From Escherichia phage W115: a stretch of 64,000 bases of DNA. The stretch is from the sequence record ON286974; one strand, written 5' to 3'. This document shows, piece by piece, positions 17,271 to 22,061 of this stretch (its first letter is position 1; each line of letters begins with the position of its first letter). The position numbers and the translations under genes were made by a program. Under the pieces are notes generated by a model that was not told the origin of the DNA, made no database searches, and saw nothing but the letters and a program-made list of their open reading frames with translations.

Positions 17271-19322
17271 TTACATTTTAAATTTATCTGGCATTGCGTC
17301 TACAGATACCAGATCAGCGATAAGCTGACGTAGAGTTGCCTTATCTGCTTTCTTACGTTCGGTTTTAGCTTCGCTAATGAAGCTGGAGAAAGACAGGTCA
17401 GAAGCAGGTTTAACAACACCTTCACGGATGAATGCATCACCGTCCGCGATCATCTCGCCAGATTCTTGTAATGCTGCCAGTTCATTTTTGTTCATAATAT
17501 GTGCCTCAATGTAATAAGTTTCTTGTGAATCCGTCGATGCCGTAGCACGAGTTACCGTATCAAAGGATAACACAACACCGCGAGGAAGTAAAATCTCGCA
17601 TTCTTTGTAAGCAAATGCTTTGTTACCTACTGGCAACACAGGGATGTTTTCCGCGCCAGCAATGGAGAAAGCAACATTAGCGCCACCTTCACCGCGAGAG
17701 CCAGCCATAGAATCAACACCAGCAACGGCACTAGCCACGTTTGCATTCCAGCCGCCAAAAATGTTAGGTTCAAGGGAAGTGCTCACATAGTTTTTAAAGT
17801 AAAACGCTTTTTGCTTACGTGCAGTTTCCCACATTTGCGACCGGAAGTCCATACCACGATACAGAATAGTACCCGGATCAAGTTTAACGCCATAGTTGGA
17901 GAAGGCATTATCCAGTGCATCGCACATCTTGACCAATTCTTCTGGATCTGCGATGCCTTCAAACTCTTCCAGCTTACGGTCGGTTAGGAAGTTGTTCATA
18001 TTGATGTATGCTGCATCGGCATATTCGCTCAACACAAAACCTTCCGCGCCCGGCAGATCAAGATCAATATCTGCCATCATTTCACCCATGTTGCTAGCAA
18101 TTGCTTCAAACATACCGGAAGCAACATTACGTAGGGCATCGGTTTTAATCTGGGTGATATGACTACGCAGCATTTCAGCTTTTACATCTGCTGGCATAGA
18201 CTGGTCTACTCGATCCATTGCCAGGGCGGTGATCTTGTTTTCGAATACTTCCTCGCTCATGATTTCTTTTAAGCGTTTGATTGATGCTGCGATAACTTCC
18301 GCAGACAACGGATCATATTGATCCTGAACTTTTACCAGTTCGCTTACTGCGTATTTTGCATCGGCTTCGCTTTCAAAAATAGTACGCATGAAACCATAGC
18401 GAGTGATAATATCACTTGTCCAGTCATTCAGAGAACGGGCGGTTGAACGTTCTAAGGCTTGACGGTCAATCAGAGTATTAAACTGTTTCTTAGGTTCTGC
18501 TTCGGTGATATCTTCTTCCGGTTTAAGATTAATTTTTTCTGGATGATTCACATAGTCGCTGTTATAGGTCGCTTGAGTTTTCAGCATTTCTTCTTTAGTC
18601 AAACGAGATTTAGCCGCTACGCGTTGTTCTGCTTCCGAGTTTCGTTCTTCTTCTGACACAAGACTAGCCGCATACGCCTCATCTTTAGTCAGAGATTCAC
18701 CAGTAGCCTTAGATACCCAGCGATCACCTAAATCACTTTCTACTTTAGTGAACAAGGATTCATCAAGTTTAATCCCTTTAATCTTATCAATCGCCATCCC
18801 GCGACGCTTGACAACAACTAAAGCGATCTTTTTGCTGGTCATTACTTCCTGCTGGAATACTTCAAACTTCGGTGTACGACGCACCAAACGCTCTATAACG
18901 CGCTTAACCAGTTCGGTCTTACCTTTCATGCGGGATACGTTAAAACGGAACATAACAGCGTCTAATTGCGCTTTACGGGCTGTTTCCATAACCACATCAA
19001 AAGCACTTGCCATAACTGCAATCGGGTTATCTCCTAGACCATTTTTAAGCTGTACAATACGACCGCTTTTGTTCATTTCGCACAGTACAACATGTGCGGT
19101 CTTGTCACCCATACGAATGATTTTAGGTGTTTTGTTGGTGAAGTTACAAAGACGGACAATCACATCTTTATCGCGTGTCTGTACTGCAAAAAGCTGTTTA
19201 GGATTCTGCTTAGGCTTTAAGCACTGTACCGGAGCAATACTACCAAAGTTTTCTTCCTCTTCCGTCAACAGCCATTTCTCGAAAGATTCAATCATTAGAT
19301 CGTCGATTTCTAAGTTAAACAT
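17271..19322 (-). CDS. alt: Alt ADP-ribosyltransferase (capsid-packaged, modifies host RNA polymerase in T4)
   Basis: 683 aa; ART motifs ILYRGMDFRS, YVSTSLEP, ECEILLPRG; size and position after gene 54 as in T4. Confidence 0.85.
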   Translation of the reverse strand: MFNLEIDDLMIESFEKWLLTEEEENFGSIAPVQCLKPKQNPKQLFAVQTRDKDVIVRLCNFTNKTPKIIRMGDKTAHVVLCEMNKSGRIVQLKNGLGDNPIAVMASAFDVVMETARKAQLDAVMFRFNVSRMKGKTELVKRVIERLVRRTPKFEVFQQEVMTSKKIALVVVKRRGMAIDKIKGIKLDESLFTKVESDLGDRWVSKATGESLTKDEAYAASLVSEEERNSEAEQRVAAKSRLTKEEMLKTQATYNSDYVNHPEKINLKPEEDITEAEPKKQFNTLIDRQALERSTARSLNDWTSDIITRYGFMRTIFESEADAKYAVSELVKVQDQYDPLSAEVIAASIKRLKEIMSEEVFENKITALAMDRVDQSMPADVKAEMLRSHITQIKTDALRNVASGMFEAIASNMGEMMADIDLDLPGAEGFVLSEYADAAYINMNNFLTDRKLEEFEGIADPEELVKMCDALDNAFSNYGVKLDPGTILYRGMDFRSQMWETARKQKAFYFKNYVSTSLEPNIFGGWNANVASAVAGVDSMAGSRGEGGANVAFSIAGAENIPVLPVGNKAFAYKECEILLPRGVVLSFDTVTRATASTDSQETYYIEAHIMNKNELAALQESGEMIADGDAFIREGVVKPASDLSFSSFISEAKTERKKADKATLRQLIADLVSVDAMPDKFKM

Positions 19323-19673: not shown

Positions 19674-19853
19674 TTAGAACATTTTTGAAATTAATTCTGC
19701 TTTGATTTCGCAGAGAACATCTAAAGATTTCTCGTCACCCGCTTTTGCTGCTTCTGCTTGCATTTTTGAAATGGCTTCAATGTCAGTGCAATTATAAGCC
19801 GCTTGAACTTTAGCGATTGCGATGATTGCCGATTCGATGGTTAAGTTTTTCAT
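19674..19853 (-). CDS. small hypothetical protein (59 aa)
   Basis: Manual ORF (MKNLTIESAII...) starting just after a PeSL. Confidence 0.35.
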   Translation of the reverse strand: MKNLTIESAIIAIAKVQAAYNCTDIEAISKMQAEAAKAGDEKSLDVLCEIKAELISKMF

Positions 19854-19879
19854 GTTTGATTCTCCTTTCGTTTCGGTAT

Positions 19880-19920
19880 GTGTGCATTATAGGGGATCAC
19901 CGATCCCCCTGTCAACAATT
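19880..19920 (-). promoter_or_regulatory. PeSL early promoter cassette 2
   Basis: TTGACA - palindrome GGGGGATCGGTGATCCCC - TATAAT, then CCGAAACGAAA leader and GGAGAATCAAA before ATG. Confidence 0.6.
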
Positions 19921-19922
19921 TT

Positions 19923-20441
19923 TTAGTTATTTTTTAATTGCTCATCTTGCAATAGGGCAATCACATGCTGGCGATGTTCTTCCGATTGAGGCACACCGAA
20001 AAAGTTTGTTTTGTAGAAATACTCTAATCGGTCTTCTCGTGTGCTCTCTTCCATCATGATCGCGGGTAGTCCGAGATTTCGGAAACGTCGCTTTTCTGCT
20101 GGCGTAAAATCACTGTAATACAACATAGAATCATCATTACCAGCAATGCTAAACTCATCCTTCATAAAGGAGAATATTGCGTTTAAACGCTGTTTACCGT
20201 CCACGATTTCGATCTCATAGCGAGAGCCATCATCAATCTTAGCCATTGCGATAGCACCAACCGGAAAATCATTAATCAGGTTTTCGATAAACATACGTTT
20301 GTTTTCGGTGTCCCATACCAAAGGACGCTGATAATCTGGGTTCATGTTGATATAGCCATCTTCTAACCATGCATCATAAACAGAGATGACAAAGTTTTTA
20401 GTATTGGTATAGTAACGGCGTTTAGGCGTTAAACGGTTCAT
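19923..20441 (-). CDS. DUF262 / ParB-like domain protein (GmrSD N-terminal-like)
   Basis: Track ORF trimmed to ATG with AGGAGA RBS; NPDYQRPLVWD...FPVGAIAM...EIVDGKQRLNAIFSF matches the DUF262 signature (DGQQR-type). Confidence 0.65.
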   Translation of the reverse strand: MNRLTPKRRYYTNTKNFVISVYDAWLEDGYINMNPDYQRPLVWDTENKRMFIENLINDFPVGAIAMAKIDDGSRYEIEIVDGKQRLNAIFSFMKDEFSIAGNDDSMLYYSDFTPAEKRRFRNLGLPAIMMEESTREDRLEYFYKTNFFGVPQSEEHRQHVIALLQDEQLKNN

Positions 20442-20442
20442 G

Positions 20443-20775
20443 TTATAGTCTCCTGAATGGATCATCACGTAAATCAATATCTTTTAAGAACTCATCCCAT
20501 GAATGGCGGATATTGTTCTTAATTCTCCAGATAAGAGCAGGGATTGAACGCTCTCCCATCTGGAAGTATGGATCATATGATCCGTATGCCCAATATGCTA
20601 CTACAATTCCACAATCAGCGCAATAGTATTCTATTTCACTTGCTGGCGACCAAAGTCCATCAATATGATCGGTGATCTTGCTTTCGATGTTATGGCTATG
20701 ACAATCAGGGCAACGGATGCAATGACCTTGTTTATCGTAATTTGACGTTAGCGAATACTTAAACAATCTCATCAT
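20443..20775 (-). CDS. zinc-ribbon protein
   Basis: 110 aa; CIRCPDC ... CADC (two CxxC pairs); overlaps neighbours by 4 nt. Confidence 0.55.
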   Translation of the reverse strand: MMRLFKYSLTSNYDKQGHCIRCPDCHSHNIESKITDHIDGLWSPASEIEYYCADCGIVVAYWAYGSYDPYFQMGERSIPALIWRIKNNIRHSWDEFLKDIDLRDDPFRRL

Positions 20776-21488
20776 AGATCCTTATTGGCTTCAAATACTG
20801 CCTTTGCGAATCCTCGCGGGGTAAGTGACCTGATAGTCTTTGTTCTGGTTCCTTTCCCGCCTAGCTTAGAATGCTGTTTACTGTACCCTTTATTAATCTG
20901 CAACGGTTTCTTTTCTGGCATTATAAAGCCTTGTCCGGTCCATAAGCAAGTCTTTTTTGGGTACATATCACGGGCGGCAATATACTCAGGAAACGTAGGA
21001 TGTTTATCATCTTCCGGCAAATAACCGCCATATTCCCACGGATGGAACATGTAATCAGGCTTACGCCACATGCTAGAGATAACGCTTACAGGATTCTCTA
21101 TCATGTATGGAACTCCTAGCCATTCACCCAAATAAGCGGTTATTTTAGCTGCCCGTACATCATGAACTTGAATCAATGGTCCTTGTTCTCGTTTCTTTCG
21201 TTCAAAGTGCGCAGCGCCACTAACAGCTAAATTGGTGCACGGTGGGAATGCAAAGATAATATCCGGTTTCCCCCATTCAAGGTCCATTGCTCTTTCCAGC
21301 CAGTTCAAATCAATCCAGGTGTTTACATAGGTAATGTTTTGATGTTCAAATCTGGTATTATATTTTTTGTATGTACCGTGGTCGGCGTCATCCGCATTAA
21401 AGCAGACTACCTTATGACCTGCTTTAGCCCATTCTAGCCCCATTATCCCCGATCCGTCAAAGTTGCAGAATATTAATTTTTGTTTCAT
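20772..21488 (-). CDS. C5-cytosine methyltransferase-fold protein (minimal, atypical)
   Basis: 238 aa; motif I-like FDGSGIMG, motif IV-like FPPCTNLAVSG (PC dipeptide), motif VI-like IENPVS; no obvious target-recognition domain. Confidence 0.5.
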   Translation of the reverse strand: MKQKLIFCNFDGSGIMGLEWAKAGHKVVCFNADDADHGTYKKYNTRFEHQNITYVNTWIDLNWLERAMDLEWGKPDIIFAFPPCTNLAVSGAAHFERKKREQGPLIQVHDVRAAKITAYLGEWLGVPYMIENPVSVISSMWRKPDYMFHPWEYGGYLPEDDKHPTFPEYIAARDMYPKKTCLWTGQGFIMPEKKPLQINKGYSKQHSKLGGKGTRTKTIRSLTPRGFAKAVFEANKDL

Positions 21489-21730
21489 ATACGCCCCTTT
21501 AATCCAACACAGATTTTAGAAGGTTCTTTGCCGTGCCACATTAAGTAAATTCCGTTAGTACGGCCTTGTTTTGTATATGATTCTTTTCTGATCTTCTTAT
21601 AGTGTCGTGCTTCCTCAGCCGATTGTTTAGAATGTCGATCATAAAGGAAGAGGAACAAAGGCCACCCATTAGCGACCTTAATGCAGTTATTCAAAAATTC
21701 CTTATTTCGTTTAATTAATTTTCTTTTCAC
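21485..21730 (-). CDS. hypothetical basic protein (81 aa)
   Basis: Track ORF; 4-nt overlaps with neighbours indicate translational coupling. Confidence 0.5.
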   Translation of the reverse strand: MKRKLIKRNKEFLNNCIKVANGWPLFLFLYDRHSKQSAEEARHYKKIRKESYTKQGRTNGIYLMWHGKEPSKICVGLKGRI

Positions 21731-21978
21731 GCTGCCCCCATTGGTTTGATAGTAACAGAATCTAAAAGACCTTTGTTAGCCAGTTCGCGGCAAGTTTTCA
21801 GATCCGCAACTTCCCAGCCAGCCGCAATCAGGTTATCAATCAGGCTGTTAGCAATTTCTTCGCTCATGAAAGAGCACTGTTTGCCGATGGTGTAGCGTAC
21901 ACGCTGTAATTTCAGTTTACGGAAGCCTTTAACGTTCAGGTCTTTAGCGATTTTCTTTGCGGTTTCGATGTTAGCCAT
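21727..21978 (-). CDS. hypothetical protein (83 aa), first gene of the operon
   Basis: Track ORF directly downstream of PeSL 3. Confidence 0.5.
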   Translation of the reverse strand: MANIETAKKIAKDLNVKGFRKLKLQRVRYTIGKQCSFMSEEIANSLIDNLIAAGWEVADLKTCRELANKGLLDSVTIKPMGAA

Positions 21979-22014
21979 TGTTTGATTCTCCTAAGTGGTA
22001 TCTCGTCTTGATGG

Positions 22015-22050
22015 TTGTATTGTAGGGGAGTTATCCTCCCCTGTCAACAC
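22015..22050 (-). promoter_or_regulatory. PeSL early promoter cassette 3
   Basis: TTGACA - palindrome AGGGGAGGATAACTCCCC - TACAAT; conserved leader and GGAGAATCAAA. Confidence 0.55.
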
Positions 22051-22061
22051 TTTTTATAAAA

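Follow-up and report, generated by a model that had tools for sequence, protein, structure and literature searches.

Do genes that share one early operon also share one task? This question is raised by a locus of Escherichia phage W115 (sequence record ON286974), of which we analyzed a stretch of 64,000 nucleotides, hereafter called the window. Five closely packed genes on its minus strand, numbered here in the direction of transcription, include those for a 238-amino acid (aa) protein with a DNA cytosine-C5 methyltransferase fold (gene 3), a putative zinc-ribbon protein (gene 4), and a 172-aa DUF262 protein (gene 5). The window belongs to an RB49-like Krischvirus, and the W115 region is 97-98% identical to RB49, TB34, SAP, GEC-3S, and about 55 other Krischvirus genomes. 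A reading of the letters alone (the sequence-only reading) had suggested that the five genes could be a DNA or nucleotide modification module or an anti-defense/decoy module and had considered their combination unexpected. We hold, with fair but by no means full confidence, that they are independently acquired early accessory genes of an RB49-type phage, brought together in an ordinary mosaic cassette.

This conclusion is based on the distribution of the genes. Homologs of genes 1 to 5 occur in 56, 173, 1524, 292, and 327 phage records, respectively, and co-occurrence was examined at 55 viral-contig loci with short DUF262 homologs and at 80 loci of the methyltransferase family, using a range of 6 kb. 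Two Krischvirus loci were the only ones of the 55 DUF262 loci with a methyltransferase or zinc-ribbon gene within this range, and at the DUF262 loci from outside the genus neither of these genes, nor either of the two small open reading frames (ORFs), was present (0/53). Likewise, a single Krischvirus locus was the only one of the 80 methyltransferase loci to contain any other member of the set, and a DUF262, zinc-ribbon, or small ORF was found beside none of the 79 methyltransferase genes from other phages. A methylase domain (N6_N4) appeared in two of 138 representative sizeable DUF262 neighbors and the C5 type ranked in none, the commonest neighbors being Ead/Ea22 and DUF551. Gene content also varies inside Krischvirus: phage kaaroe has an extra ORF, and the Krischvirus-like contig L016 is without the 81-aa gene (gene 2). 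Given that co-occurrence outside the genus is zero, we regard the combination as a lineage-specific juxtaposition in a cassette of the stem-loop early promoters termed PeSLs, and not as a conserved system; the proposed functional module is thus not borne out.

Nor is the combination as surprising as had been thought. The methyltransferase is already annotated in the RefSeq records of RB49, GEC-3S, and JSE, and as 'Dcm' in kaaroe; short stand-alone DUF262 proteins exist in other T4-type phages (RB43 and Slopekvirus) and make up a large family; and phage DNA-modifying enzymes with a ParB-fold protein encoded beside them are a theme already described (PMC13229309; PMC12783734). This literature also provides the precedents for a true modification module, in which the DUF262 protein, perhaps together with the zinc-ribbon protein, would load, activate, or target a methyltransferase poor in target-recognition domain (TRD) on double-stranded DNA. 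A ParB-like activator is required by the phage thymine dioxygenase 5mYOX176 (PMC13229309), and ParBc domains are often fused to, or encoded beside, phage methyltransferases and CmoX (PMC12783734). Both 5mYOX176-ParB176 and the ParBc-methyltransferase fusions resemble the W115 locus in placing a small ParB-superfamily protein beside a phage enzyme for post-replicative C5-pyrimidine modification, an activity that is predicted for W115. However, the 5mYOX176-ParB176 family combines PF02195 with a C-terminal dimerization domain, whereas the 172-aa protein belongs to the PF03235 (DUF262) branch. Genuine ParB-5mYOX pairs, moreover, co-occur recurrently (27% of pathways; PMC13229309), whereas the DUF262/methyltransferase pairing of W115 was confined to one genus at the loci examined.

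The near absence of a TRD from the 238-aa enzyme and the translational coupling of the genes would also suit such a module, as would a different small putative methyltransferase that two Vequintavirinae phages encode some 1 kb upstream of their DUF262 genes. Yet the methyltransferase family is nearly always encoded without DUF262, the additional kaaroe ORF is inserted between the zinc-ribbon and DUF262 genes, the Vequintavirinae enzyme is non-homologous, and the longer DUF262 relatives have N-terminal extensions that bear no relation to the operon proteins. All in all, we consider a true modification module very unlikely. The two Vequintavirinae are Klebsiella phage DP (L010 13303-15513) and Erwinia phage pEp_SNUABM_01 (L011 8396-10516), in which a 'putative DNA methyltransferase' of about 227 aa and the short DUF262 gene are on the same strand; it was rejected as a relative of the 238-aa protein since the two are not homologous and it has no Pfam match.

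If the genes work separately, what might the individual proteins do? Judged from sequence and model, the 238-aa protein is the only one of the five to which an enzymatic role can be assigned. It matches PHROG 757 ('DNA methyltransferase') with E=2e-90 and belongs to a family of 7321 clusters, nearly all of 225-250 aa, whose 1524 phage records include Dhillonvirus, Kagunavirus, Jerseyvirus, Webervirus, and rV5-like phages. The motifs FDGSG, FPPCT, and IENPVS on which the sequence-only reading had relied are present, and their core residues show little or no variation among 49 homologs (56-65% identity). Specifically, motif I (FxGSG; F10-D-G12-S13-G14), which binds S-adenosylmethionine (SAM), is at least 90% conserved, while motif IV with the catalytic cysteine (P82-P83-C84-T85) and motif VI (E131-N132-P133, with ENP in place of ENV) are invariant; a highly conserved C-terminal block of the family, IRSLTPRG, resembles motifs IX/X. 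Codon changes in the gene (10-14 synonymous versus 2-5 nonsynonymous) show that it is under purifying selection.

The AlphaFold model of the 238-aa protein is confident (pLDDT 90.8, pTM 0.89) and has the SAM-binding Rossmann fold of C5-methyltransferases, a class-I fold closest to the solved members of this group. As proposed, the target-recognition region is very small: about 30 residues only are found at the position of a TRD, between motifs VIII and IX. In Foldseek, the model retrieved generic class-I methyltransferases only, the best being DNMT2 (TM 0.35), which also has a PPC motif. Profile searches had been expected to recover both DUF262 and the C5-methyltransferases; they did so above threshold for the former (E=4.8e-20), while the PF00145 match of the 238-aa protein stays below the Pfam cut-off (15.6 versus 22 bits) and aligns residues 10-100 only. 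A search of the family profile against the PDB by sequence returned no C5-methyltransferase at E<1, and the relationship to the solved enzymes is therefore remote.

The closest known kind are the orphan phage C5-methyltransferases of the PF00145 type, with E. coli Dcm and, for CCNGG, M.SsoII/M.ScrFI as reference enzymes. Compared to these, the 238-aa protein is shorter, has the reduced segment at the TRD position and the sub-threshold Pfam score, and carries PPC in motif IV and ENP in motif VI. The nearest structure is the catalytic domain of DNMT3, which has a small TRD and which the compact protein resembles. M.SsoII/M.ScrFI offer the nearest hypothesized specificity. A literature search found no experimental characterization of the family. 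In other phages, it is surrounded by a heterogeneous set of replication-module genes (helicase, HNH, and primase among them). In Dhillonvirus bob, the methyltransferase gene is followed by a 105-aa 'HNH' gene, which was considered as a zinc-ribbon homolog and rejected, as it is not homologous. Homologs with about 55% identity are also encoded by four unannotated Campylobacter phage records of 128-143 kb (MG065635, MG065661, MG065644, and MG065672), and these are closer to the 238-aa protein than many homologs from enterobacterial phages.

A more specific lead to the target came from the differences between SAP (OZ034687.1) and TB34 (OX001802.1), which are listed in Table S5 of PMC13390438 as about 45 single-base indels and 14 single-nucleotide polymorphisms (SNPs), and which we compared at loci L151, L152, and L155-L160. 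All 14 SNPs are C>T or G>A, and each changes the middle base of a site that is CCSGG in SAP and CCWGG in TB34; 8 of the 14 CCSGG sites in an examined 30-kb stretch of SAP (2700-33000) are affected. Many of the single-base indels would frameshift essential genes. RB49, sequenced by the Sanger method, and SAP, sequenced with Illumina, have the same base at 6 of the 7 sites that can be compared and agree at all 6 homopolymers, which shows that the assembly in error is that of TB34; its errors are of the kind usual for long reads. The same comparison led us to reject the reverse possibility that the SNPs are Dcm-site miscalls in SAP.

The TB34 laboratory uses MinION R9.4.1 with Guppy, although the platform used for TB34 itself is not confirmed. 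C-m5C-SGG would come out as CCWGG from a basecaller whose training data were Dcm-methylated E. coli DNA, and the host, DH5-alpha, methylates CCWGG only. We infer that TB34 DNA carries a non-host modification in CCSGG, the simplest version being C-m5C-SGG. Given that the sole other DNA methyltransferase of the phage is a Dam-like N6-adenine enzyme of the D12 class and that the host is restricted to CCWGG, the 238-aa protein is the sole cytosine methyltransferase candidate, and the pattern hints that it makes m5C at CCSGG/CCNGG.

Would such methylation have escaped notice? RB49 has been regarded as unmodified, and HpaII and NheI digest its DNA (PMC4041780), and TB34 showed no modified nucleosides by high-performance liquid chromatography/mass spectrometry (HPLC/MS) and was not cut by BrxU, which cuts 5-methylcytosine (5mC) DNA (PMC13390438). 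The negative nucleoside analysis and the resistance to BrxU exclude dense methylation. However, the window contains only 33 CCNGG sites in 64 kb (23 CCWGG and 10 CCSGG, both with an observed/expected ratio (O/E) of 0.34); methylating all of them would involve about 0.26% of cytosines, while of the CCGG sites about 9% are part of a CCSGG. The rarity of CCNGG thus makes its methylation compatible with the negative bulk assays. Other palindromes are also avoided, namely GGCC (O/E 0.36), GAATTC (0 sites, 17.6 expected), GGATCC (0, 13.8 expected), CTGCAG (0, 6.5 expected), and CCTAGG (0, 2.8 expected). GATC is not avoided in the window (O/E 1.03), which fits the Dam-like methylase of the phage.

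The same assays could be taken to mean that Krischvirus DNA is unmodified and that the 238-aa protein is no DNA methyltransferase in vivo, but methylates RNA or tRNA as DNMT2 does, uses another cofactor or substrate, or serves as a SAM- or DNA-binding decoy. DNMT2 as the top Foldseek match and the sub-threshold Pfam score would agree with this, and CmoX shows that other chemistry is possible on the same fold, with E. coli supplying carboxy-SAM (Cx-SAM). We nevertheless regard this reading as unlikely: the family resides in phage replication modules beside helicases and primases, a motif that involves so few cytosines would go unnoticed in bulk HPLC and in HpaII digestion, and the CCSGG miscalls of TB34 suggest a non-host modification of DNA. 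The reading we favor is that the 238-aa protein is an autonomous, very compact orphan DNA cytosine-C5 methyltransferase, in which a Rossmann core would bind SAM through motif I and use the cysteine of the motif IV PPC for catalysis, with ENP as motif VI. Acting on replicated phage DNA, the predicted enzyme would methylate a short and rare motif, most likely CCSGG/CCNGG (C-m5C-NGG), and would thereby protect the few remaining sites from enterobacterial restriction enzymes of the CCNGG or CCWGG type; such sites and other palindromes are also avoided in the genome.

The comparison between SAP and TB34 has a further consequence. The two phages may be essentially identical, which sharpens the puzzle of why SAP was reported to be hypermodified and TB34 was not, and a sample mix-up or contamination behind the SAP report should be excluded. 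As a source of the reported hypermodification the operon was rejected, since SAP and the unmodified TB34 do not differ in the five genes (100% identity) and no variant of the published Snippy table lies inside them.

The last gene of the operon had been assigned to DUF262 by its signature, and this assignment is confirmed by a match to PF03235 (GmrSD_N; E=4.8e-20), above the Pfam threshold, and by structure matches to the ParB superfamily. The 172-aa protein contains the motifs QRxxxW and DGxQR plus an invariant C-terminal block, NxxGVPQSEEH. Its structure model is of moderate quality (pLDDT 71.8), and the top matches all belong to the ParB/Srx superfamily (pNOB8 ParB-N, PadC, KorB, SspE, 9jfl, BrxU, and sulfiredoxin), in keeping with the fold of a ParB N-terminal domain with a nucleotide-binding pocket; a sequence search against solved structures gave no useful match. 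The best PADLOC matches are NsnA (E=1.9e-20), of which positions 48-188 of 385 only are covered, and PD-T4-2_A. No DUF1524 or HNH domain was detected in any of the five proteins with Pfam, NCBIfam, or PADLOC. The 172-aa protein consists of one complete DUF262 domain of ParB/Srx fold, which stands alone, without a nuclease or DNA-binding domain, and the lack of an effector domain in it or nearby means that it is not a GmrSD-type nuclease.

Two known systems are instructive here. The Type IV enzymes GmrSD and BrxU share the N-terminal DUF262 (GmrS) domain with the 172-aa protein but differ in that the latter has no DUF1524/HNH domain, in that the operon has no GmrD-like gene, and in that it is encoded by a phage rather than a defense island. 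Similarly, NsnA of the Menshen system has the ParB-DUF262 domain in common with the 172-aa protein, which in turn is without the ParBDB DNA-binding domain and has no genes for the NsnB ATPase or the NsnC effector nearby; downstream, the operon is followed by an ORF of 59 aa that has a promoter of its own.

An exhaustive HMMER search showed that the nearest relatives of the 172-aa protein are stand-alone proteins of 155-190 aa, and that a second group of 250-290 aa has an N-terminal extension. Such an extension is present in 77 of 157 relatives, 65 of these 77 belonging to one family that is unrelated to the operon proteins. The conserved extension (proteins P0146-P0276) comprises about 120 aa without a Pfam match, in which a coiled-coil precedes a small beta-rich stretch. 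Rosetta-stone fusions among the 157 relatives were considered and rejected, since the extensions are unrelated to the operon and one relative only has a zinc ribbon. Homologs are found in RB43, Slopekvirus, Mydovirus, Henunavirus, and many prophage-like contigs, and our literature search returned no experimental characterization of stand-alone phage DUF262 proteins.

Given that DUF262 is the sensor domain of several defense systems (PMC12065111), the locus might alternatively be an anti-defense cassette, with the DUF262 protein as a decoy or dominant-negative partner of host sensors such as GmrSD/BrxU, SspE, Menshen NsnA, PD-T4-2, or Dazbog. Such a decoy would shield DNA that the phage's own methyltransferase makes visible to Type IV systems. 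The best PADLOC matches, the retention of nucleotide-binding motifs without an effector domain, and the location in an early accessory region are all compatible with this idea, and one related phage record labels its DUF262 homolog 'DefenseFinder protein'. However, many phages and early regions of prophages have a homolog but not this methyltransferase, and the protein could equally be a superinfection-exclusion sensor fragment or a DndB-like DNA-binding regulator; an anti-defense cassette of this kind therefore strikes us as distinctly unlikely. In the account that we prefer, the DUF262 nucleotide-binding domain would act alone, and its most plausible role would be that of an accessory or anti-defense factor that binds DNA or protein in an NTP-dependent manner.

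This account as a whole, that is, independent genes, an orphan C5-methyltransferase, and a stand-alone DUF262 protein, appears reasonably probable to us, and several points weigh against it. The tight translational coupling (ATGA, GTGA) could reflect stoichiometric co-production of proteins that interact in Krischvirus. The methylation activity of the 238-aa protein is a prediction, made for a protein that scores below the PF00145 cut-off and whose family profile retrieves no solved C5-methyltransferase. The bulk nucleoside analysis of TB34 saw no 5mC. The CCSGG signature comes from one assembly, with its sequencing platform unconfirmed, and was absent from three other Krischvirus assemblies, which have normal substitution spectra; this absence is expected if those were short-read assemblies, and the signature is thus without replication. 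A basecaller artefact unrelated to modification may also explain it. Finally, that CCNGG is depleted at all argues for methylation being an incomplete protection or a secondary strategy.

A bolder version of these ideas would make the 238-aa enzyme the smallest working type of DNA C5-methyltransferase, which, perhaps in the form of a DNMT3-like dimer, needs no conventional TRD to recognize CCSGG/CCNGG, and which in Krischvirus is wired to the DUF262 and zinc-ribbon proteins. The resulting 'methylate-and-shield' module would serve for loading of the enzyme, or for shielding from DUF262-based Type IV sensors. We consider this a long shot, and its extension, that the enzyme feeds the pathway behind the reported cytosine hypermodification of SAP, is more remote still.

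How did the five genes come to be expressed together? All five ORFs proposed for the minus strand were found (Table 1), and the same genes are annotated in GEC-3S, TB34, SAP, and ELT4. The 4-nucleotide overlaps that had been claimed throughout are present at three junctions (GTGA, ATGA, and ATGA), whereas the fourth, between the zinc-ribbon and DUF262 genes, is a 1-nucleotide gap (TAAcATG), with an AGGAG ribosome-binding site for the DUF262 gene. Gene 1 has a strong ribosome-binding site, taggagaatcaaacaATG. In kaaroe, the ORF between the zinc-ribbon and DUF262 genes encodes 59 aa (kaaroe_252; L007 1441-1620) and has no Pfam match.

Table 1. Genes and PeSL elements of the five-gene locus, in window coordinates.
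Feature	Position	Strand	Description
Upstream PeSL early promoter	22019..22047	-	TTGACA, 17-nucleotide stem-loop spacer, TACAAT; 11/12 consensus matches
Gene 1	21727..21978	-	83 aa; phrog_14908; Krischvirus only
Gene 2	21485..21730	-	81 aa; basic; GTG start overlaps gene 1 stop (GTGA); phrog_7065
Gene 3	20772..21488	-	238 aa; minimal orphan C5-cytosine methyltransferase-fold protein; phrog_757 family
Gene 4	20443..20775	-	110 aa; putative zinc-ribbon protein (CxxCxxC...CxxC); phrog_2993
Gene 5	19923..20441	-	172 aa; stand-alone complete DUF262 (ParB/Srx-fold) domain
Downstream PeSL cassette	19886..19915	-	12/12 consensus matches; directly after gene 5 stop codon

The single PeSL early promoter that had been placed ahead of the operon is indeed there and agrees with the GEC-3S record, which has promoters annotated at both equivalent positions; the stem-loop in its spacer has 6 base pairs (GGGGAG..CTCCCC). 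The downstream PeSL forms the 3' boundary of the five-gene unit and drives the next small ORF (19674-19853, 59 aa), and a search for terminators between the two PeSLs revealed none that was convincing. The five genes are probably one early transcription unit. Eight PeSL sites, all on the minus strand, were found in the window, and the elements combine a sigma-70 promoter, a GC-rich stem-loop between -35 and -10, and flanking accessory ORFs. The stem-loops of the eight cassettes are near-identical (GGGGATC..GATCCCC).

PeSLs and their shuffling of accessory ORFs have been described for the very same region of RB49 (Arbiol et al., 2010; PMC2839356). In the PeSL and ORFan cassettes of RB49 and phi1, as in W115, a stem-loop early promoter flanks accessory genes in a hyperplastic region (PMC2839356); those cassettes, however, mostly contain one or two ORFans, whereas the cassette of W115 has five translationally coupled genes, two of them with recognizable folds. 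We picture the locus as one PeSL-bounded early unit in the hyperplastic accessory region of an RB49-like genome, whose five independently acquired genes would be co-expressed and yet work separately. PeSL-mediated rearrangement, as in the cassettes of RB49 and phi1, is visible in SAP, where the downstream cassette (window ~19860-19940) has undergone a perfect tandem duplication of 79 bp relative to TB34 and W115 (locus L006 1556-1634, corresponding to OZ034687.1 39625-39703). The duplication gave rise to the annotated mini-ORF SAP_052, is missing from the published Snippy table, and is the sole sizeable difference between SAP and TB34 in this 5.5-kb locus. Close by on the downstream side of the cassette, positions 17271-19322 of the window contain a gene for an Alt-like RNA polymerase ADP-ribosyltransferase of 683 aa.

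Of the three remaining genes, two encode the 83-aa and 81-aa proteins, to which profile searches assigned no function. All 56 records with gene 1 homologs are Krischvirus by tblastn; in PADLOC, its product weakly matches the UG35 reverse-transcriptase (DRT) profile (E=1.9e-5; positions 722-785 of 938). Gene 2 is a hot-spot of divergence among Krischviruses, with 4.5-9.3% nucleotide differences versus at most 2.5% in its neighbors and about equal numbers of synonymous and nonsynonymous changes. Distant homologs occur in Dhakavirus, Karamvirus, and T5-like phages, and its absence from L016 indicates that gene 2 is dispensable. For gene 4, the cysteine pattern behind the zinc-ribbon claim, CxxCxxC...CxxC, is present, while the profile match is sub-threshold (Zn_Ribbon_TF, E=5.6e-4); its homologs in Nonagvirus and Felixounavirus have no methyltransferase or DUF262 gene nearby.

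While the cassette itself is ordinary, it leaves two useful outcomes, namely the negative co-occurrence result and a testable prediction for CCSGG/CCNGG. Nearly all of the published differences between SAP and TB34 are artefacts of the TB34 assembly, which bears on the report of SAP as hypermodified and TB34 as unmodified, and the miscalls of CCSGG as CCWGG provide a concrete motif prediction for the 238-aa enzyme. Given that the compact C5-methyltransferase family is large (more than 7000 clusters and about 1500 phage genomes) and includes many isolates of Escherichia, Klebsiella, and Salmonella phages, knowing its motif would help to predict the restriction systems that these phages escape, as well as the Type IV systems to which they become visible.

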